NCBI GenBank assembly: GCA_963752255.1
Contig: CAVVXT010000019.1
Location: 64,001-128,000 of the forward strand
Origin: Nitrososphaeria archaeon
Lineage (GTDB): Archaea; Thermoproteota; Nitrososphaeria; JACIWG01
DNA length: 64,000 bases
Direction: 5' to 3'
Shown: in pieces, positions 5,992 to 19,067 of the stretch
Layout: each line of letters opens with the position of its first letter
How positions within the stretch are numbered: position 1 is the first letter of the stretch
The notes under the pieces: generated by a model
The model's database searches: none
What the model was told of the DNA's origin: nothing
Seen by the model: the letters and a program-made list of their open reading frames with translations, nothing else
Position numbers and translations under genes: made by a program

Positions 5992-7494
5992 CTAGGGGTT
6001 TACCTGAATCTTCACCGCCATGCTCGCCCATTTGTTTCCGTCCGTGAGCAAGCCCTGAGGCCCTACAGTCGCGATTTTCAAAGGTTCTCCGGAAGTTAGC
6101 GCTGCTCCATTTAGGTAATAGGCTACGATCATCGTCATAGGTTGGGTGGCTGACATTGGGTTTCCTGTCGTGGGGTCGTACGTGTTCAGCCCCTGCCCAT
6201 TCAGCTGTTGATAGGTGTAAACCATCGAATATCCATCGCTAGCCGTGACTGTCACGTTTTGGTTTGCAGTGATGCCGCCTACTAGGTTCAGGAGGGTCAT
6301 AATTGGTACACCGGTATAATTACCGAAGCCTTGGATTCCACTCTTTCCTTTGTACCCTCCTCCTGCTGTGTATGAGCTGAGAGAGGCAATGTCTTGTGAA
6401 TGCAGTACTATTTGGGTTCCGCTGGAGCCTACTATTGTTAGGTTCAGGTGGGGTATCGGCATTATTTGAATTTGGACTATGTCCTTGACCATTTGTTTCT
6501 TGGTCACGCCTGAACCGACTAGAGTCAAAGGCCAGTACGGGCTGGGGAGTATGGCGCCGTTTAGCTTTGCCGCGACGATTATGTTATTGTTATTGGTGAC
6601 ATAGGTATCATTCATAACGGTGAAATAGCCATCTCCACCTATCACTTTCACAACGTAACCATTGGCCAGAGACACGTTGCTGATGCCGCCGTTGATGACA
6701 CTGTAAGATACGAATTGATCCAGAGCTACACCTGTCCAAACGTTGCCGGTACTATCAGTATAGTTTTGTGGGAAGTGATTGATGTCTGCCATATACGCTT
6801 GCATGTCCATGGTCAGAGGAGTTGTGCCGTTGACAACTAGATTCCAATTCTCCACACTCTGAGTTACTTCTATTTTGTCCACTAATTTAGTCCAGAAATG
6901 GCCTTCAGTGAGTAAACCTTGGGGTCCCAGAATAACGAGTCTTAGGGGTCCTACATCAGAAGTTAGGGCCGTGCCGTTATAGTAATATGCGACTACCACG
7001 GTCAATGGTTGAGTAGCTGAGGATTCGCTGCCAGTCACTTGATCATAGGTGACGTAACCTTGGCCGTTCAGCTGTTGATAGGTGTAAACCATCGAATATC
7101 CGTCTTTGGCTGTTATAGTGACCGTTTGGTTTGCAGTGATGCCGCCTACTAGGTTCAGGAGGGTCATAATTGGTACACCGGTATAATTACCGAAGCCGCC
7201 GATCATTCCACCGCTGCTCTTGTAGCCTCCGTGCCCGGAGTAAGCGGTGAGCTTTGCAATGTCACTTGAATTCAAGAATTTTTGATTTCCTGATGCCCCT
7301 ATGAGGGTTAAATTCATTGATGGAAGTGTGGTTGCTGAATTTTTTTTGTTGGATGGGCTTAAATTCAGTTGCCAAACGGCAACGGCTCCTACGACGATGG
7401 CTGCTACGACGATTATAGCGATAACCATGATCGTGACAAACTTTGGCTTGATCATGCCTTTTCTTTCCGAAATCTTTCTCATTTTAAGATTCAC
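5992..7494 (-). CDS. Membrane-anchored protein with three Oxidored_molyb-like repeats, Cys-free
   Basis: N-terminal TM helix. Three repeats with (Y/W)TGV, DGY, PL.(L/I) and K.V..I motifs. Many N-X-S/T sequons. Upstream of and probably co-transcribed with wtpA. Confidence 0.7.
   Translation of the reverse strand: MNLKMRKISERKGMIKPKFVTIMVIAIIVVAAIVVGAVAVWQLNLSPSNKKNSATTLPSMNLTLIGASGNQKFLNSSDIAKLTAYSGHGGYKSSGGMIGGFGNYTGVPIMTLLNLVGGITANQTVTITAKDGYSMVYTYQQLNGQGYVTYDQVTGSESSATQPLTVVVAYYYNGTALTSDVGPLRLVILGPQGLLTEGHFWTKLVDKIEVTQSVENWNLVVNGTTPLTMDMQAYMADINHFPQNYTDSTGNVWTGVALDQFVSYSVINGGISNVSLANGYVVKVIGGDGYFTVMNDTYVTNNNNIIVAAKLNGAILPSPYWPLTLVGSGVTKKQMVKDIVQIQIMPIPHLNLTIVGSSGTQIVLHSQDIASLSSYTAGGGYKGKSGIQGFGNYTGVPIMTLLNLVGGITANQNVTVTASDGYSMVYTYQQLNGQGLNTYDPTTGNPMSATQPMTMIVAYYLNGAALTSGEPLKIATVGPQGLLTDGNKWASMAVKIQVNP
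6200..7197. repeat. Intragenic direct repeat with two perfectly identical blocks (offset 867 bp)
   Basis: 6258-6330 equals 7125-7197 (73 bp) and 6200-6234 equals 7067-7101 (35 bp). Confidence 0.9.
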
Positions 7495-9202: not shown

Positions 9203-10258
9203 TCATTCAGAAAATACACGTCTTTTTGCCCAGATAGCCACATTCACCAAGCCTATCATGACAGGCACTTCTATCAAGGGCCCTATCACTGTCGCAAAAG
9301 CTTCTTGCGAGGATAAACCAAAAACTGCGACTGCCACAGCAATAGCTAATTCGAAATTATTACTTGCTGCAGTGAAGGCAAGCGAAGTAGTCCTTTTGTA
9401 GTTTAGCTTCAAGTAGTAACCCAAGATGAATGATATTAGGAACATTGGAATGAAATAGGCTATCAATGGTATCGCTATCCTTACGACATCTAGTGGTAGT
9501 GTCACGATATATTCCCCCTTAAGTGAGAACATGACCACTATCGTGAAAAGAAGTGCGAACAAAGAAGTCGGGCTCAGCTTCGGCATCAGTTTATGGTCGT
9601 ACCATTCCCTTCCCTTCGTTTTCAGAAAGTAGTACCTTGCTAACATACCGCCGAAGAAAGGTATCCCCAAGTATATCGCTACAGACTCCGCTACTCCTAT
9701 AAAAGAGATGTTGACGACTGTCCCTTGTCCTCCAATCCAAGAACTTGCGAGAGTTATGTAGAAGTACGCTAAAACCGAGTAGAACAGTATCTGGAAGATG
9801 GAGTTCAAGGCTACAAGTATCGCAGCCCACTCGCTGTCCCCTCCAGCCAGGTCGTTCCAGACGATGACCATGGCGATGCACCTTGCCAAACCTACGAGAA
9901 TTATTCCATTTCTGAAAGCCGGATAATCTGCCAAAAATATCCATGCCAATGAGAACATTAAAAGAGGTCCAATTAGCCAATTTAAAATCAGCGAAGTAGA
10001 AAGCATCTTCTTCGAGCCCTTTGCTGTAACAACCTTCCCCAATTCCTCGTATCTGACCTTTGCTAGGGGAGGAAACATCATCCAAATTAGCCCAACTGCT
10101 ATAGGAATTGAAGTAGTTCCAACACTTACTGAACCTATTATTTCAGAGATCCTGGGGAAGACATATCCTAGGCCAACACCTAGCATCATGGCCAAGAATA
10201 TCCAGAGCGTGAGAAATCGGCTGAGAAAGGATAGCTTCTTTTTTTCATCTTTTTCCAA
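9203..10258 (-). CDS. acr3: Arsenite efflux transporter, ACR3 family
   Basis: [48 protein letters not shown]. Confidence 0.95.
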
Positions 10259-10421
10259 AAAAATTCACCTTATGGAGAACCACATAAAAGACCATACAGT
10301 AGCCTAAAGAATACGCTACCTGCCCAAGCAATAACCATGAAGGTGGTGCACAAGGGGGTTCAGGATCAAAAACTTCAACAGTTATGCTTTTCACATTATG
10401 CATTATATTCAGACCGTAACT

Positions 10422-10445
10422 ATCACAATATTTAAATATTGTGAT
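10422..10445. promoter_or_regulatory. Perfect 24-bp palindrome, probable ArsR operator over divergent promoters
   Basis: ATCACAATATTT/AAATATTGTGAT centred on TTTAAA, 15 nt upstream of the arsR start. Confidence 0.75.
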
Positions 10446-10460
10446 TAATTTACTATATGT

Positions 10461-10784
10461 ATGCCAATGCAGAAGGATGGTTTGGACAGATTTAGGGCTA
10501 AAATATTTTATGCCCTTTCGGATCCTATCAGGCTCAAGATTATTGAGTATTTGAGAAATGGAGAGAAATGCGTGTGCGAGATAATCCCATATATTAAAAT
10601 GCCTCAGCCTATAGTCTCACGCCACCTGAAGATTCTAAAAGACTCTGGGCTGCTGAAGGATAGAAGGGATGGAACTCGGAGATTTTATTCGATTACAGAC
10701 AGGAGGGTGTTCGATATAATTGATACTGTGTCACCTGACGTGGCCGAAAGTCTCTCGGGACATGCTATTGAGCAGATAATCTAG
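10461..10784 (+). CDS. arsR: ArsR/SmtB family metalloregulator
   Basis: FYALSDPIRLKI, EKCVCEI metal site, VSRHLKILK helix. Confidence 0.92.
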   Translation: MPMQKDGLDRFRAKIFYALSDPIRLKIIEYLRNGEKCVCEIIPYIKMPQPIVSRHLKILKDSGLLKDRRDGTRRFYSITDRRVFDIIDTVSPDVAESLSGHAIEQII

Positions 10785-10798
10785 AAGAGTCAATCTTT

Positions 10799-11227
10799 AT
10801 GCCACCTGTTAAAAGAAAGGTCCTCTTCCTTTGTGTTCATAACTCTGCTAGGTCTCAGATGGCGGAAGGTCTACTGAACCATCTATTTGGGGATAGATAT
10901 GTGGCCTATAGTGCGGGTCTTGCTCCAACAAAAGTTAATCCATACGCCATTAAAGTCATGGCAGAAATCGGGATAGACATCTTAGATAACAAAGCTAAAT
11001 CCTTCATTGAGTTCATTGGAAAAGGCATCGATGTAGTGGTTACAGTATGTGACGAATCAAAAGAGGTTTGCCCTTATTTTCCAGGAGCTAAAAGATTTAT
11101 TCATTGGAATTTTCAGGATCCATCGGAAGCTGTCGGCACTGAAGAAGAAATTCTAAGGGTATTTCGAAATGTCCGAGACGCATTAAGAGACCTGATTACA
11201 AAAGCTGTTGAAAAAAGTGAACTATAA
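10799..11227 (+). CDS. arsC: Arsenate reductase (LMW-PTP/thioredoxin-coupled type)
   Basis: LFLCVHNSARSQMAEG, VTVCD....CP.FPG, HW.F.DP. Confidence 0.92.
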   Translation: MPPVKRKVLFLCVHNSARSQMAEGLLNHLFGDRYVAYSAGLAPTKVNPYAIKVMAEIGIDILDNKAKSFIEFIGKGIDVVVTVCDESKEVCPYFPGAKRFIHWNFQDPSEAVGTEEEILRVFRNVRDALRDLITKAVEKSEL

Positions 11228-11269
11228 AATGCGAGATATTTGGACAGTTGTTTGCAGAAGCGAATAACA

Positions 11270-12027
11270 GTGTCTGAGCATAAAAAGGGCTGCTTGGTCT
11301 GCGGCGAAGAAATCGTATATGATGTAGAACGCTCAGAATTGGAGTGCTATTACTGCCATCAGATTCAAACCTCGCGGGTCAGGTGCATTAAGGGGCATTA
11401 CGTCTGTGACAGATGTCACAGCGCCTCCGCCAACGATCTGATAACGACCTCTGCACAAACACCAGCTCAACTGATCCCCTTGAGCAGGCATTGGTTCTTA
11501 TGAGAAATCCAAAGGTTAAGATGCACGGTCCAGAACATCATTTTCTGGTCCCGGCAGTCCTTTTATCTTCTTATTACAACATTAATGGTAATCCCCATGA
11601 AAAGGAGGCCAAGATCAGGGAAGCAAGAGAGCGTGCTTCCAAGGTGCCAGGCGGTTTCTGCGGCTACTTTGGGGACTGTGGCGCAGCAGTTGGGACCGGA
11701 ATATTCGTCAGCCTGATAACCAATGCAACACCTCTCTCTATCGGGGAATGGCGCCTTGCCAACATGATGACATCAAAGAGTCTCCTCTCAATCGCGGAGC
11801 ATGGGGGACCGAGATGCTGCAAGAGGAACAGTTACCTTGCGATACTGCAGGCCACCGATTTTTTAAAGGATAATTTCAATGTCGAAATGAAAGTCAATAA
11901 AAACATAAAATGCGAATTCCACGACCTGAATAAGCAGTGTCTTAGAGAAAAGTGCACATTTTCACTAGCTTCAATTTGCTATTGCAGTCGCCGTCGTGGT
12001 ATTTATTATTTGGCTATAAGATCATAG
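11270..12027 (+). CDS. DUF5714-like Cys-rich protein, split by a -1 indel at ~11445
   Basis: N-terminal CLVCG, CYYC, C..GHYVCDRCH; C-terminal MHGPEHH, GGFCG..G.CGA, GPRCCKR. Confidence 0.7.
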
Positions 12028-12808
12028 TTGCGGGTAATAGAAAGTATTCTGGCTGCAAGTTGAATCTCCAAACTATTTTACATTTGTTAATTCTTCAATT
12101 TGTTATCAATTAAGATTAGAGGATAAATGTTCAAGAAACTGCCACACTTTTAGAAGGGAAGTCGATTTAATAGAAACTGCTTTTTACTATTAGAAGCCAT
12201 TCTTTTGAAGAATTTAAAAAAATCTGAGCATAAAGTTAAAAAGAAAAATAGAAAGATTCAGCGCAACCTACGCTCAAGAACACATAGCATAATATTTGAT
12301 AGCATTTATGACCGTAAAAATTACGGAGTTTAATATTTCTTGTTCAAATTGGTTTTGATAGTGAAGTTGAGTTATTAATCTTAATCTAAATTTCTCTTAA
12401 GGGAACAAATTCCCAAGAGTTCTCAATGTTGACTGGGGCAGTTCCGAACGCTTTTAGCCTTCAACTGTAAGCGCTTAAGAATCTTGTAGATGCTAGTGTT
12501 CCATGTCGTGCAGCTGTCATGCTTTCAAACCTCAATGAATTAACTTGTTAGCCCTAACCAGAAATCCGTTTAAAGTTTTCTTAAACCTTTCGTCCTTTTG
12601 ACTAGATTACCGATTTAAAAACTTGACACGTCTAAAGATTACTGATAAGGTTGACGATGTCCGTAAATAAGCCGTTGTCAAGAATCGCCTCTAGGAATGA
12701 GCGATAGATCGAGTTCGGGTCGTCGAGTCGCTTCATGCCGTGAGGCCTCTTGAAGCCAACGAACAGAATAGCAGCGAATTTGAATCGGACTGCATAGTAT
12801 AGGAAACC

Positions 12809-12970
12809 CTAGCTTTTCGACTTACTGCTTTCTTGCTTCTCGGACTTGCGGAGTCGGTTCAGTTCGGCTATCTTCTCCTTGTATTCCTTTTTCTTCTTCT
12901 TATTTCCTTGTGCGCGCGCTTGGTCGTATAGCTTCTTCAGTTTCTCTTCTTCTAGCGTGTAATGGGGCAT
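12809..12970 (-). CDS. Small basic hypothetical protein (53 aa)
   Basis: Read by eye: MPHYTLEEEKLKKLYDQARAQGNKKKKKEYKEKIAELNRLRKSEKQESSKSKS, in a locally GC-richer patch. Confidence 0.35.
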   Translation of the reverse strand: MPHYTLEEEKLKKLYDQARAQGNKKKKKEYKEKIAELNRLRKSEKQESSKSKS

Positions 12971-13111
12971 CTTCGGAAATGAGGTCGTAGCGCAATAGTT
13001 AAGTCTTTCTGAGATGGGTCACAAAACTACCCGCTGAAGTAGTCCTCCTTGTTGTAATTACTTAAGATCACAGCATAATTTCTATTTGTCAAAAATGGGG
13101 GATCGAGGTAA

Positions 13112-13227
13112 ATGAGTGAAACTGAATCACTAGGGAACTTCATCATGTTTAGGCAATCACAACAATGGATGCTGCTGAATACAAGCATGCCGTTATTGGC
13201 TTAATTTTTCTTAAATTTGACACTTAA
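13112..13227 (+). pseudogene. hsdM: Relic of a type I restriction-modification HsdM N-terminus
   Basis: 13165-13227 encodes MDAAEYKHAVIGLIFLKF, near-identical to the conserved HsdM_N motif MDAAEYKHVVLGLIFLKY. GAGGT RBS plus ATG at 13112. Confidence 0.75.
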
Positions 13228-13283
13228 TAAAAGTTTACATAAAATCTCAATATCCTTATTTGGTATCTGCACCTAATAATGTA

Positions 13284-13302
13284 CAAATCCCACCGGGCCC
13301 GC
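13284..13302 (+). other. tRNA 3'-end fragment (att-like scar)
   Basis: CAAATCCCACCGGGCCCGC is a T-loop/T-stem plus acceptor 3' strand typical of archaeal GGGCCC-acceptor tRNAs. It is GC-rich within AT-rich DNA and has no 5' half. Confidence 0.65.
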
Positions 13303-13461
13303 ACCCAATTCTTCTCTGTTCATTATTTACCATTAAATTAATGTTGAAATCCTACTTCACAAATCAGATTTATTTTTGATTTATCCATGTCAAACAAGTA
13401 AAAATGGGAGTAGTTTAATAGCTCATCTAGGTTTTGGAATAACATTTGTTCGATTTAAGTA

Positions 13462-13722
13462 GTGAAGGAGTTTATACGTTTCCGGATGTTTATGTCGTTG
13501 ACAAGTTTTGCAGAGAGTTCTATTTATTTGGGAAAAAAGAAGATGTCCTTATTAATAGAAACTAGTAGTGTCCCTGATGGCTATTTAATTACAATTGGTG
13601 AATATATCTTTGAATTATATAACGTTAGGCTCTATTTAGACAGGGAAATCGTCATCGATGCAAACCTAAGATCTCAATTGGAAGCGTTTGCTGGAAAAGA
13701 TCCAGTAAAGAATTGGGGCTAG
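13462..13722 (+). CDS. Hypothetical protein (true start may be further downstream)
   Basis: ORF track only; no recognisable motif. Confidence 0.3.
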   Translation: MKEFIRFRMFMSLTSFAESSIYLGKKKMSLLIETSSVPDGYLITIGEYIFELYNVRLYLDREIVIDANLRSQLEAFAGKDPVKNWG

Positions 13723-13849
13723 TTCGTTCAGTCCACTCACAAACTAACTAAGAAAGACTTTCCATCTTTATAGAAACTTTACCGATTTTGTTAAGGTTTC
13801 CTTTACGTTTTCTGTTAATGAAAATATCGTTGATAATCGTGGATAATTC

Positions 13850-14021
13850 CGGCTCAAACAGAAATTTGTTTGTGCAATTAGCGCAAACGTTCTGCTTGTT
13901 GGCTCAGACAGATGCCCCTGTGCTCAATTAAATATCATACTCCTCTCATGCAGGACACCGTTAAGTTGAGCCGACAAAAAGAGTTTGCGCTAACTTTTTT
14001 GCTGATTTTCTATTTGAGCCG
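13850..14021. repeat. 172-bp element with ~56-bp imperfect inverted arms
   Basis: Left arm 13850-13906 CGGCTCAAACAGAAA...TTAGCGCAAAC...TTGTTGGCTCA. Reverse complement of right arm 13967-14021 is CGGCTCAAATAGAAA...TTAGCGCAAAC...TTGTCGGCTCA. Confidence 0.8.
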
Positions 14022-14287
14022 AACATGATTGCACCTGGTTGGTTAAACGTCGCACATTAACAAAAACTTTAAAGTTTGAGCATGGCATAGACCTGCTTTT
14101 ATCACTTTTTGGATATGCAGCGGTCGGAGTACCAGCATAAAGATAACCTTCTCCCCTTTTTCTTTTTTATAGTGTATACGGGATTATCCTAATCGGTAAA
14201 GGTTCTTTTATAATGAACTTGAAACAAAAAGAATGTACGGCCCGTGAGGCACTTTGTTCTGACTGACTAACTGGACTTCATGGGAAA

Positions 14288-14337
14288 TGTTCAAAAAGTG
14301 GGTTTACGGTCATGACCACAGACCTAGATTTTGAACA
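14288..14337. repeat. Symmetric 50-bp site, copy 1
   Basis: TGTTCAAAA-AGTGGGTTTACG-GTCATGAC-CACAGACCTAGA-TTTTGAACA. Confidence 0.9.
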
Positions 14338-14584
14338 TTATTGCCAAAAAGGAAGTTATAATTTTGTGTCAACTCCTTCTCAGTGATTGCGCCATTTACA
14401 TCCGTTACATCCTATTATAGGAGAGTTAAATTTCTTCTAAAGGTGCTTTACCATATTAATGGACGAATGATTGGAGGATGACTGCAACTGCACCAAATAT
14501 CAGGAAGAAAAAGAAAATACGACTAAACCAACTATCTGAGAAATTGGAAAACTCATGGTATTTTGGGTTGACTAGACTTTAAAA

Positions 14585-14634
14585 TGTTCAAAAATAGTGA
14601 CTACTGTCATGACTGCGGATGCAGATTTTGAACA
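14585..14634. repeat. Symmetric 50-bp site, copy 2
   Basis: TGTTCAAAA-ATAGTGACTACT-GTCATGAC-TGCGGATGCAGA-TTTTGAACA. Confidence 0.9.
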
Positions 14635-15781
14635 AGACGACCTTAATGGAAAAAATAACTTTTGTCCGTTATACAAAGATCTTAATGCTGCAAGCAGTGT
14701 TGAAAAAAATTAGAGTCAGACTTATAGTCGAATAATTTAAAATCCCACTTTTATAGGATAGAATTATTGCTCTACTTCTATAGAATCTCCAACTGGAGTA
14801 TTAAACTAGTTCTCCGAGAATCAATCACCACCTTTATTGCTTCAAATGCTTAAAAAATTATTGCGAGTTAGACTTTAATAAGATAAGAAATTTAACAAGT
14901 CAATACACCCTTTCAGCATAGAACAACTTCAGGAGATCCTCTATCTCCTCCTTTTCATCCTTCGATGGCTTCCATCCACAAAGTTCACATTTACTTTTGA
15001 TATTTAATGGTTCATTTTCTTGTCTAAGCTTTTCAACTAGTACCTTTAATGTTAAAGGGAGAACGGGCGACCAAACAATATCTTATCAGTTAGTGCAGGG
15101 ATTAACGATTCTTCAATGATCTTTTCAGTCCAACTTACTTTAGGACTTTTTAAAGTTCAGGATTACCAGAAATTTGTCTAATTGTTGAACTTTTTCCTTG
15201 CTGTGTAGAGATGGATACACCCTGCAAAAATCAAACCAAAAGCAAAGATCCCGATAGCAGTCGATAAATCACCATCTCGAGTTATTGCCTTAAGCCCAGC
15301 TTTAACTGGGCTATTCTGTTTTACTATGCAACGTCCGGCCAGATCTCCCGTTTTTTCCTCCCTTTCATTAATGGAAAGATTCTGCTTGTTTCTGCTTGTT
15401 TCCAAAATCGCTTCTATCATCACGAATTATCATCATCGATTATCCATTCTTTTTTGGAACTTTCAGCACGTATAAGCTGCTTATCCTTAGAGCCGCATAT
15501 GTACTCGCTTCGCTGTACCCATGGCGAAAAGATTTCATCGTCCATCGTTACAGGACACATTTCTTCAAGACAGGCTTCTGTAATGTTATGGTCAATGGAA
15601 CACTGCTTTTTAACCCTGTAAGGTGTTACCACAGAGAATTTTTTAAATGGAGGATTACAAATGCAATTTTCCACCGCATTTTTTAGATGGTCGCTGCAAT
15701 ATTTTTTTCCCACGTTTCTCCACAGAAACAGGGGATACCTCCTTTCTATACTTATCGTTTGATATGTACAATCAGAATAAT

Positions 15782-15830
15782 TGTGCAAAAAAAGGTGTGC
15801 AGTCATGACCGCAGCTGATGATTTTGAACA
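15782..15830. repeat. Symmetric 49-bp site, copy 3, overlapping the topoisomerase start codon
   Basis: TGTGCAAAA-AAAGGTGTGCA-GTCATGAC-CGCAGCTGATGA-TTTTGAACA. Confidence 0.85.
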
Positions 15831-17978
15831 TGACGATTTTGAGGGCGAGATAAGGTCAAGGCCAAGGGTCTTTGATTTCTTCACTCTCGATGGTGTTGAG
15901 AGGCTTACCGGGTGCACCCTTAATAAATTCCTGTTGTTCATTACAAAGGAACTCATAGATAATGCCTTAGACAAAAAAGATGTAAAGAACATCAATGTTA
16001 ATATCTGTGAGGAATACAAAACATTAACATTATCTGTTTCTGATGACGGCAATCCCACATTTGACAGGGAATCCCTCTCAAAGGTCCTGGATTTCGAGAA
16101 AGCGCCTTCGTCTAAAAGAATATACAAGACTGTGAAAAGAGGTGTCCGAGGCAACGGACTACAGAGCTGCTTCGGGATTTCTTATACCACATGGACTGCA
16201 GACGACAGGCCCGAAATACAGCTGAAGTATTGGGAACGGAAAGATTTTTAGTCAATTTAGATCCAAGCAAAGTGTCAATTAAAGAAGAACCAAGAGTCAA
16301 CGATGGCACTACAGTAGTTTTATTCAAACTGCCCGTGGCCGATTATATATCACCCTTCAGAATCGTAGAAACCGTCGCTTTACTTAACCCGCGTACAACT
16401 TTGACTTTTAAGGACAAGGAAGTTGAGCAGACCTTCGAAGCCTTGGAAGATGCTTCACCTTCTTCACAGACAGATGTCGACATACATTGTTACAGCTTAG
16501 CAGAATTCGGCTACCTTGCCGATGAAATAAAACATATAACAGTCGAGAGGTTAGTTACCATTTTCAAAGGCCTGAAACATCGTTCCTATGCGAGAGAGAT
16601 CCTTGATGAACTGGAAATTCAGCCAGGGACCAGGCTTTCAGATATCGGTTCTAAAGAACTCGAATCGCTTTACAATGCGATAAAAGAGGCTGCCAAGAGC
16701 ATAAAAGCTACCCAGCTTCCTCTGGTTGGTCAGGACGCGTTTGAAAACTTTGGTGCTGTAGGTTACTCCGTGAAGCGCGGTGTGTGGAGTGAAGATGGTA
16801 GGATCGTGCCCTATGCCGTCGAAGTTGCCTCCTTTGAAGGCGAGGGTGAAGATATCATAGAGACGATAAACTTCTCCGCTTCTATCCACCATCCTTTTAC
16901 AATGTGGGTCAGGACCGAAGGTGAAAGGAGGGTTAAACTGCATGACCTCATAAAAGATAAGGGAGTCACTGTTCTGATCCATCTGGTGTGTCCTGCGATA
17001 ACGTGGCTAAACGCAAGTAAGGGTGAGATGGACATCGAACCATTTGGGGAGAAGATTTTTTCTGCTGTCCGAAGCGTCTGCAAGCAGAATACACGATCAG
17101 GATTCGATTCCGAAACCCTGACTTCGCTTGCCAACAAGGTCATGTGTTCCTACCCGACATTGAACTTTACAATCAGGCAGGTCTTTTATAGGTTGGTGGC
17201 CCTTCACGGTTACCCGAACACCCGACAGTCGTATAACAAATTAGGAAAAGCTCTTGTCATGGCAAGACAAGAAGGCTCTGTAGATGCTGACCGGATAGTG
17301 GATTTGAGTAGGCCAGAATACGTTAACAATAGCCAGTATCAGTCATTCCTTGAGAAGGTTGAGTCGGACTTCAAGGCGATGGTAGAAAACTTCGATTTGG
17401 ACATGTGGGATCAGCAGCCCTTCTTCTGTGAAACGTGGACGGAAAAGGAGGCGCTCAGTCGCGTTCTCATGCCAGTCTGCCAAAAATATCGGGTGAACTT
17501 GATCGTTGGACGCGGGTATTCCTCATATACACAAATACGAAGAGCGGTTAAAAGGTTTCCTGAGGGAAAGAAGGTCATTTTAATGTACATCGGAGATTTC
17601 GACCCAACGGGTCGACACATCGAGGTGAAGTTGATACAAAGACTACATGACCAAATTAGAAGGAGTGGTAAGGACGTAGAAGTAGAGGTGAAAAGGATAG
17701 CGCTTACCTATGAACAAATTAAACAACACGATCTACCCTCTTCTCCCCTGAAAAAGTTCGGCCAAAAGCGTAACGAATACTACGAAGAATATGGTGATAA
17801 CGTGTGGGAAGCTGATGCCCTAAGTCCTGAAGTCCTTATGAAAACTTTAGAGGAAGAAATTAGAATTTTAATCGACTGGGAGATCTGGGACAAAAAAGAG
17901 GAAGAGGTCGAATACTTCAGGAAACTACTAAGAGAACGTTTGGGACGGCTTTTGGACGAACTGAGGGCTTTCGAATGA
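15805..17978 (+). CDS. Fused type IIB topoisomerase (Topo VIII-like; GHKL/B module plus WHD-TOPRIM/A module), split by a -1 indel at ~16213
   Basis: GHKL motifs KELIDNALD, VSDDG, RGVRGNGL, DGTTV. A-module TIRQVFYRL (catalytic Tyr), WTEKEAL, GRGYSS, GDFDPTG, WEADAL. AGGTG RBS before the ATG at 15805. Confidence 0.8.
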
Positions 17979-18218
17979 TAAGGCTTCTGGCAGATGTTCG
18001 TACATTTTTCTTAAGATTTCATAATGTTCTACATGATGTGTTGATTATTTTTTGCCATAATACCTAAAAGGCCATATGGTTGGGTGGATCAGGCGGCCAA
18101 TCTTTTTTTGTTCAACGACAAGTTTAGAGAACGCCGTATTTCATAATTATATCAGTTTGGAAAACCGTGCCCATTAATCACACAGAATCTTAAATTATAC
18201 ACAATATGATCGCTTTGA

Positions 18219-19067
18219 TTAGGCAGAAGTTGTAACTTCCAAGTCCAGAACTACTTGAACAATTCTGGGTCCGACCTCTCTCACGACTTTTCCTCGAGTT
18301 GATGAAATCTTGAAGTTATGAGGTAAAACTAGCTCCGGTAAAACTTCATTAATCGTTTCATCCATCGGTGCTGATTTAGCGTGCAGATATAAGTGAATGA
18401 CCCCACCTTCCTCTCTCAACGCCTTGACAGCGTACGGAAAATATTCTATGGATCTCTCAGGATATGGCATTATAACGCGATTGGCGGAACCTGCGAGCTT
18501 GTAACTTATTATTCGAGCTGCATCACCCAAGAAAGCTATTATGCGGTCGTCCACCTTATTTACGAAAACGTTTTTCAATATCATTTCATACGCGTCAGGG
18601 TTAAGGTCAATTACATAATTTGTCGATGTCTTACGTTTTTTTGCGATCAAAATGGAAAACGTGCCGACACCCGCGAACATGTTGACAACAACCTCATTCT
18701 CGCCAACGAGGTTTGCAATCCTCAACCGTTCCGCAGACAATCTTGGTGAAAAATAGGTTTTACCTATGTCTACATAGAATCTGCAACCGCTCTCCTTACA
18801 TTCTGTGAAAGTCCGATTTTCCCCGGCTAGATATTCTAAGCCCATCAGCCTATATTCTCCAGAAACAGGTGAAGCCTGTCTGAAAACGCATTTTACAGCT
18901 TTAACGTTCTCCAGTAAGGTTTCCGCAATCAGGCTCTTCTTCGGCAAAAGTGTGTCTGGAATCTTTATAACCGCAATATCTCCAATAATGTCAAATCCTG
19001 AAATGATGTCGTCGAGCTCTTCAGGCGAGAGTTTCTCTGAAAGTAATTCTTTTACAAGACGCCCCAA
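18219..19067 (-). CDS. Trm5/Tyw2-family tRNA-modifying SAM-dependent transferase
   Basis: FDIIGDIAV, YFSPRL..ER.R, MFAGVG.F, DLNP.A, GDA, RVIM. Short form without the N-terminal D1 domain. Confidence 0.85.
   Translation of the reverse strand: MGRLVKELLSEKLSPEELDDIISGFDIIGDIAVIKIPDTLLPKKSLIAETLLENVKAVKCVFRQASPVSGEYRLMGLEYLAGENRTFTECKESGCRFYVDIGKTYFSPRLSAERLRIANLVGENEVVVNMFAGVGTFSILIAKKRKTSTNYVIDLNPDAYEMILKNVFVNKVDDRIIAFLGDAARIISYKLAGSANRVIMPYPERSIEYFPYAVKALREEGGVIHLYLHAKSAPMDETINEVLPELVLPHNFKISSTRGKVVREVGPRIVQVVLDLEVTTSA

Follow-up and report, generated by a model that had tools for sequence, protein, structure and literature searches.

A 64,000-nt stretch of the genome of a Nitrososphaeria archaeon (contig CAVVXT010000019.1, positions 64,001 to 128,000; the whole stretch is referred to here as the window) carries three copies of a symmetric element of about 50 bp. 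All are found within 1.6 kb, and one of them supplies the start codon of a gene for a type IIB topoisomerase-like protein, in which a Topo VI-B half is fused to a Mini-A-type half. Comparison with a sister species indicates that the outer arms and the central core of the elements are under purifying selection, and elements of the same architecture are found at the loci of homologous genes in other archaea. We favor, tentatively and at somewhat less than even confidence, the reading that the elements are cognate cis-acting binding sites of the homodimeric product of the adjacent gene, and that the copy on the start codon gives autoregulation.

Each element consists of a 9-bp arm, a spacer of 11 or 12 nt, an 8-bp core, a spacer of 12 nt and a second 9-bp arm, i.e., TGT[TG]CAAAA-N11/12-GTCATGAC-N12-TTTTGAACA (Table 1). 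A search with the core and inner-arm pattern gives 3 matches in the window against 0.00 expected, and 0 of 100 dinucleotide-preserving shuffles gave any; thus the three symmetric elements described in an earlier note on this DNA are borne out. Exact as well as fuzzy (relaxed) scans of the whole assembly (genome G000; 19 contigs, 2,107,113 bases, 94.7% complete) revealed no copies beyond these three. Copy 3 has a left spacer of 11 nt. It is spanned by a contig (record 4) from metagenome run X1, which represents a strain 96-97% identical, and the sole indel of that contig is placed elsewhere, after position 15420. Thus the shorter spacer is genuine and not a homopolymer error. Left arms are weaker in the copies that lie on start codons (TGTGCAAAA, TGTTAAGAA and TGTTAAAAA). 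The possible fourth copy listed in Table 1 comes from a repeat in the window (D4) and from direct reading, and its MAFFT alignment is ambiguous.

Table 1. Elements and genes at the locus (window coordinates) and related sites at the loci of homologous genes (percent identity is that of the protein).
Feature	Location	Strand	Description
Site copy 1	14288..14337	none	TGTTCAAAA-N12-GTCATGAC-N12-TTTTGAACA; arms perfect
Site copy 2	14585..14634	none	arms perfect; 297 bp after copy 1
Site copy 3	15782..15830	none	TGTGCAAAA-N11-GTCATGAC-N12-TTTTGAACA; covers Shine-Dalgarno (SD)-like GGTG, ATG (15805) and codons 1-9 of the gene
Possible decayed fourth copy	14878..14929	none	296 bp after copy 2; core-like GTCAATAC, right-arm-like CATAGAACA; low confidence
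24-aa frame from central ATG of copy 1	14312..14386	+	relic of duplicated 5′ end; no selection at the protein level
34-aa frame from central ATG of copy 2	14609..14713	+	9 of the first 14 residues match the gene N-terminus; no selection at the protein level
Fused Topo VI-B + Mini-A-type type IIB topoisomerase-like gene	15805..17978	+	two frames in the window, 15805-16251 and 16191-17978; one A missing after 16213
Divergent gene directly upstream of copy 3	15178..15770	-	C-terminal membrane helix (IGIFAFGLIFAG); split in the window, A missing after 15420
Site at L035 (48%)	on ATG		TGTTAAAAA-N12-GTCATGAC-N12-TCCTGAACA
Sites at L115, L116 (42-43%)	dyad 8-9 nt upstream of ATG		CTTCTGTAAA-N15-GACTAGTC-N16-TTTACAGAAG, plus a weaker version
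Sites at L033 (45%)	one on each side of gene		two GACTAGTC-centred palindromes; arms ATGTTCATAAAT or ATGTTAAAAA
Sites at L114 (42%)	upstream of, inside and after gene		three copies
Site at L117 (39%)	on stop codon, 6230-6278		TGTTAAAAA-N11-ATCATGAC-N11-TTCTTAACA

The similarity between the copies extends over approximately 100 bp. It takes in part of the upstream flank as well as codons 9-14 (DDLNG in copy 2, DDFEG in the gene), so copies 1 and 2 began as duplicates of the 5′ end of the gene. The orthologous locus of the sister species (G009) contains four copies, and the five upstream copies of the two genomes can be compared in 10 pairs. In these pairs the arms and core are identical at 260 of 260 positions, and the spacers at 139 of 236 (59%); the non-coding flanks of the two genomes are 88% identical. 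Between copy 1 and its ortholog in G009 (L014, 6783-6832) there are no changes in the 26 positions of the arms and core and 3 in the 24 positions of the spacers. The earlier note had allowed that copies 1 and 2 might be just decayed duplicates of the 5′ end. An origin by duplication stands, but the copies are not merely decayed, since the changes fall in spacers and flanks and leave arms and core intact; the arms and core are, on this comparison, under purifying selection.

As pointed out earlier, the central ATG does open a short frame in copy 1 and another in copy 2. Between G000 and G009 the copy 1 frame has a ratio of nonsynonymous to synonymous substitution rates (dN/dS) of 0.84, and the copy 2 frame shows 9 nonsynonymous and 0 synonymous changes. 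Both frames evolve neutrally, and the constraint thus acts on the DNA motifs. In the gene itself the N-terminal tail of the protein varies across the family, and the model shows disorder at residues 1-19. Conservation of the DFE/DFT codons is thus more readily attributed to the right arm of the site than to the protein. A segment of approximately 300 bp upstream of copy 1 occurs once in the window (13676-14062) and twice in G009 (L014, 5715-6072 and 6396-6684; 72% identical), which is a further sign that sequence in the region duplicates locally.

The gene that begins in copy 3 is interrupted in the window. An extra A in the A-run after 16213, present in the contigs of runs X1, X2 and X3, restores the frame, and the frameshift is either an assembly error or a strain mutation. 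Homopolymer errors in this contig, which the earlier note had suspected, are thus supported at this site but not in the spacer of copy 3. The sister species has an intact orthologue of 726 aa with the same ATG start inside its own site. The orthologue is 68% identical, against 96-97% for Trm5 and ABCE1, i.e., the gene evolves fast. The homologues P0003 and P0005 begin with MTLGSNFEH and MTVSNDFEQ. These N-termini and the orthologue start confirm the ATG at 15805 as the gene start.

The N-terminal half displays a profile match to PDB Topo VI-B (E 1e-15, residues 41-445), and its top Foldseek matches are 1mx0 and 9o0g_B (E 1e-19 to 1e-20). The C-terminal half matches phrog_6247, a viral family annotated as ‘DNA topoisomerase’ (E 2.5e-60, residues 437-715). 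It also matches very many proteins of approximately 280-340 aa, which align only to profile positions ~435-717. A search of PDB sequences with the C-half profile gave no match at E up to 1, and a separate model of the C half gave Top6A chains first but weak (E 3e-3). JetD was set aside, as there were only marginal PADLOC matches (E 0.001-0.004) on the Toprim part.

The signature box reads VWELDAL in the orthologue and VWEADAL in the window. A W[ED]xD[AVS][LIM] box is present in 23 of the 27 family proteins inspected, and WELDAL in 18. In PMC7671362 the RVELNAM box marks Topo VIII and xWELDAL marks Mini-A, and this 2019 survey reports that Mini-A was not found to have a B partner. The protein here has the B and A parts fused in one polypeptide, as in Topo VIII, without the Topo VIII box. 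It has the xWELDAL T2BI box of Mini-A and homology to the viral A-like proteins of ~300 aa; it is, however, fused to a Topo VI-B-like half and is not a stand-alone, B-less protein. The motifs FT(I/V)RQ(I/V)FY, EKEA and GD(H/F)DxxG, which correspond to the 5Y-CAP catalytic Tyr and the Toprim acidic residues (roles assigned after the cited papers), are kept in the alignments. As read from its sequence, the gene is not a Topo VIII in the strict sense: it has the fused Topo VIII layout with an A half of Mini-A type. The Topo VIII-like label given earlier is thus right for the layout but not for the signature box.

Full-length fusions number approximately 17 among the best 150 cluster representatives, and public record titles place members in metagenome-assembled genomes (MAGs) of Nitrososphaeria/Thaumarchaeota and Bathyarchaeota. 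The fusion gene is also found at L005, 1090-3270. Among 400 other genomes sampled from the phylum, 13 have stand-alone Mini-A-like open reading frames (~183-493 aa; loci L019-L032) that match the C half. A literature search for a fused Mini-A type IIB topoisomerase surfaced only a review; archaeal Topo VIII or Mini-A members that overlap this family may be listed in the supplementary tables of PMC7671362 and PMC4117785.

Homologues at 39-48% identity in other archaeal contigs carry sites of the same kind, i.e., TGT..AAAA arms approximately 25 bp from a GWCW|WGWC dyad. The position of the site varies, and it is found at the gene start, beside the gene, inside it or just after it (Table 1). The dyad lies at -9 to +2 of the ATG in five of the eight loci (G000, G009, L035, L115, L116), overlapping the gene start as an operator would. 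In most sites the arm starts 24-27 bp from the dyad; at L033 the spacing is 35-36 bp, one helical turn more (manual count). L115 and L116 are paralogues in one genome, with 10-bp or 6-bp TGTAAA-type arms around GACTAGTC, and their sites are the only such sites in that 2.9-Mb genome. One of the L114 copies (1927-1975) is a full site in frame within the coding sequence, where it gives the peptide DVKNC..ETSL..VQNF. It sits in an insertion that, as protein, is shared by P0009 and partly by P0010 and P0008. A hydrophobic frame of 23 aa, MTKNFFLNKIL..., begins at the central ATG of the L117 site.

L033 and L114 together (8,668 bases) contain 4 occurrences of the GACTAGTC core, against 5 in the 2.1 Mb of G000 and 3 in 946 kb of control loci. 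A family consensus pattern, written after the sites had been seen, gives 6 matches in 63,382 bases of seven close loci and 3 in G000, all at this locus; 150 control loci (946,437 bases) give 0 matches. The sites are restricted to these loci in G000, G009 and G742, and of the 401 class genomes two, G000 and G009, contain full elements. Thus the wider search proposed in the earlier note yields no other copies in the genome that carries the window; it does yield copies in the sister species and the same architecture at the loci of homologues. No neighboring gene is common across the loci besides the topoisomerase-like gene. At 10 loci of more distant GHKL homologues nothing consistent was found in the way of start palindromes. 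Several partial matches were rejected: 14 half-site matches in viral contigs were taken as chance, none having the other half; two half-site matches in the class genomes G548 and G493 are not palindromic; and an extra GACTAGTC match on another contig of G743 is not palindromic and has no homologue near.

The elements are read as cognate sites of the enzyme because the only gene that travels with them is the enzyme's own, because a dimer with two-fold symmetry is expected for the enzyme, and because the contact pattern of Topo VI resembles the layout of the site. In PMC13040014 the Topo VI complex on DNA is two-fold symmetric: the A dimer sits on the dyad, with the duplex running across its axis, and the B subunits contact the two DNA arms through their H2TH domain and stalk. 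Each site here is likewise two-fold symmetric, with the 8-bp core on the dyad (GTCATGAC here, GWCW|WGWC family-wide) and two TGT..AAAA arms that begin 24-25 bp from it, or a helical turn farther away in one relative. We infer that the pair of A halves would occupy the core, with a B half on either arm. The 15782 copy extends from the promoter-proximal region over the SD-like motif and the ATG through codon 9 of the gene; an enzyme bound to it would silence its own gene, and probably the divergent upstream gene also. Copies 1 and 2, local duplicates of the 5′ end, would serve as perfect, presumably higher-affinity, auxiliary sites, and copy number would drift via ordinary recombination between the repeats. 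The identity of the binder and the repression are both inferred. The suggestion in the earlier note that these may be sites of a dimer-binding type agrees with the symmetry and with the selective maintenance of arms and core, and one copy does supply the start codon, as that note had it.

Several points weigh against this reading. Topo VI is described as choosing its sites by DNA deformability and not by sequence, and no defined recognition sequence is reported in the part of PMC13040014 available; sequence-specific recognition would therefore be new for the enzyme class. Three of the eight loci are without a start-codon site, and autoregulation is thus not the whole story. The two core types do not follow the protein tree, the basal branches of which are unresolved, and co-variation of site and enzyme is not supported. 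The loci number only eight and some are close kin (G000 with G009, L115 with L116). No such sites are found at 16 loci (52,562 bases) of stand-alone Mini-A genes, and at several loci small, DNA-binding-looking proteins are encoded beside the gene.

Arrangements that bear comparison are found in other systems. The res sites of Tn3/gamma-delta are also several dimer-binding inverted repeats beside, and over the promoter of, the gene for a DNA-breaking enzyme, and autoregulation is a feature of res. However, res subsites of ~30-40 bp lie within ~120 bp and are bound by a serine recombinase, whereas the sites described here are 50-bp tripartite elements spread over 1.5 kb next to a relative of type IIB topoisomerases, and central recombination is not supported. 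Strong gyrase sites (SGS) and related elements (phage Mu SGS, pSC101 par, REP/BIME), some of them palindromic and repeated, are preferred by a type II topoisomerase. That enzyme is of type IIA and recognizes them largely via wrapping and deformability, and REP elements exist as hundreds of scattered copies. The sites described here occur at the enzyme's own gene only, and both their arms and their core are defined by sequence.

Proteins of the Mini-A and Topo VIII types are common among viruses and plasmids. To our knowledge, neither a cellular role nor a DNA target has been described for them. The locus displays a natural fusion of B and Mini-A in TACK archaea, together with a conserved 50-bp palindrome under selection that travels with the gene and has a three-part symmetry matching the hold of Topo VI on DNA. 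If a type IIB enzyme does read sequence here, it would offer a simple model of DNA engagement and selection by enzymes of the Spo11/Topo VI type. If it does not, the locus would still be a clear operator array built by duplication of a 5′ end.

It is also conceivable, though we consider it unlikely, that the elements are operators of a separate dimeric or tetrameric transcription factor, host or nearby-encoded, and not sites of the topoisomerase-like enzyme. A palindrome over promoter and start codon is what such a factor would bind. The divergent upstream gene of G000 and G009 may also point this way, as the N part of its G009 product (113 aa) weakly resembles winged-helix domains (TM score 0.36-0.43, poor model), and proteins that by eye look like ribbon-helix-helix (RHH), zinc-ribbon or helix-turn-helix (HTH) proteins are found near L114, L115/L116 and L117. 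Yet these neighbors are not homologous to one another while the site architecture is shared. In addition, the upstream proteins of G000 and G009 are very diverged, sharing the membrane helix, while the sites are identical and the flanks 88% alike. The motif occurs nowhere else in the genome, so that the regulon of a host factor would be one locus.

We regard it as improbable that the topoisomerase-like enzyme not only binds the sites but itself breaks and rejoins them in a site-specific manner, in recombination, resolution or targeted cleavage at the central AT/TA. The fused protein would then be a sequence-specific type IIB descendant that cuts, and perhaps rejoins, its own palindromes with a 2-nt stagger. 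Gene and sites would form a small selfish module, in which the protein serves as site-specific recombinase, resolvase or self-targeted nuclease. It would be a new class of site-specific DNA-rearranging enzyme, and the Mini-A lineage would have its first defined DNA target. The cut of type IIB enzymes is staggered by 2 nt about a dyad, and the core, a perfect palindrome around AT or TA, fits this. The catalytic Tyr motif RQ[ILV][FY]Y, the Toprim E and DxD are kept, and copies of the site flank the gene in L033 and L114; however, the gene is not consistently flanked by sites. Protelomerase targets such as telRL are comparable, being ~50-bp palindromes with a palindromic core and flanking inverted repeats, acted on by a dimeric tyrosine-linked enzyme. 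Protelomerases, however, belong to the tyrosine-recombinase family and act on linear phage or plasmid ends, and nothing here indicates hairpin telomeres.

Rearrangements at the locus were sought in Logan contigs of four DNA runs (X1-X4), and contigs cannot show rare junctions. A natural variant in X1 and X2, supported by one contig per run from a single study, has exactly the 297 bp between copies 1 and 2 deleted. The junction falls within 13 shared letters of the left arm and is thus off-centre, which goes against the crossover at the central AT that the earlier note had proposed and against cleavage there by the enzyme. Copy 2 of G000 has a left flank orthologous to that of G009 copy 2 and a right flank orthologous to that of G009 copy 3. 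Relative to G009 it thus looks like two copies joined into one, the change-over lying close to the core, with a 531-bp difference. A switch at that place would suit the enzyme as the agent, but the hybrid is equally explained by homologous recombination between repeats, which accounts for the deletion as well. Circular or inverted forms were not found in the contigs of the four runs. In X4, a peat metagenome, one 400-nt contig, 84% alike, joins ~13760 to 17784 with unidentified letters between; it is too weak to interpret, although a relative may lack the whole 4-kb block with the sites and most of the gene.

A role at the RNA level, as hairpins that hide the start codon and give translational control, was considered together with two other possibilities, neutral remnants of 5′ duplication and mobile palindromes like the miniature inverted repeat transposable elements (MITEs). 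Taken jointly these are poorly favored candidates. The upstream copies do fold well as RNA (z -1.4 to -4.9), but three start-codon copies fold no better than shuffles (z -0.06, +1.23 and -1.22). Spacer complementarity is near chance, the invariance of the arms leaves no covariation, and a search of Rfam with positions 10000-19000 gave no match at E up to 1. The copies derive from 5′-end duplication, as neutral remnants would, but neutral decay cannot keep every arm and core position while the spacers fall as low as they do. The in-frame copy inside the L114 gene also speaks for this group of readings. MITEs are dispersed in many copies, and no dispersed copies are found in any genome searched.

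Least probable is the reading of the earlier note, in which a large serine recombinase would act on the elements as serial att-like sites, or an integron-type cassette-shuffling system would use them as attC-like sites. The elements resemble attP/attB in length (~50 bp), in having two half-sites around a central dinucleotide, each with proximal and distal motifs, and in standing several in series. They differ from them as near-perfect palindromes repeated at one locus, with no attP/attB pair, no serine recombinase in the element or the genome, and a natural junction that is off-centre. PF00239 (Resolvase) has 0 matches in G000 and PF07508 (Recombinase) none above cut-off, with one at E 0.009 below it on contig C3. 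Matches to PF00589 (tyrosine recombinase) over cut-off are on C3, C5 and C8, and C19 has a single match (E 0.002, under the cut-off), which lies at 526 kb, not in the window but ~400 kb away. Thus, as to the co-occurrence that the earlier note proposed to check, a serine recombinase is not found and the tyrosine recombinase matches lie elsewhere. An adjacent IntI-type recombinase with a cassette array is not seen, nor are sites at other gene starts in G000 or, outside G000 and G009, among the class genomes.

The locus is at a synteny break next to Trm5 and ABCE1. A search for an empty site beside Trm5 in other genera showed that synteny ends at Trm5 in 3 of 3 genomes, and defined no island borders. 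No tRNA was found in a scan of positions 1-30000, and no RNA sequencing run that contains the locus is listed. In the window the divergent gene immediately ahead of copy 3 falls into two frames, which would be joined by the additional A that the contigs of X1 and X3 have after 15420. The neighbors at L115 (2595-3206, minus strand) and L116 (2667-3293, minus strand) are proteins of 203-208 aa that are 61% identical, with Cys-pair motifs at both ends and without a Pfam family. A DNA methyltransferase fragment or relic with a DPPF motif lies upstream in the window (13027-13188, minus strand), and an intact type I HsdM is found upstream of the homologue in L035 (1522-3339, minus strand). The synteny break, the methyltransferase context and the fast evolution of the gene fit a mobile or defence-island setting, and the gene may sit in restriction-modification or defence islands.

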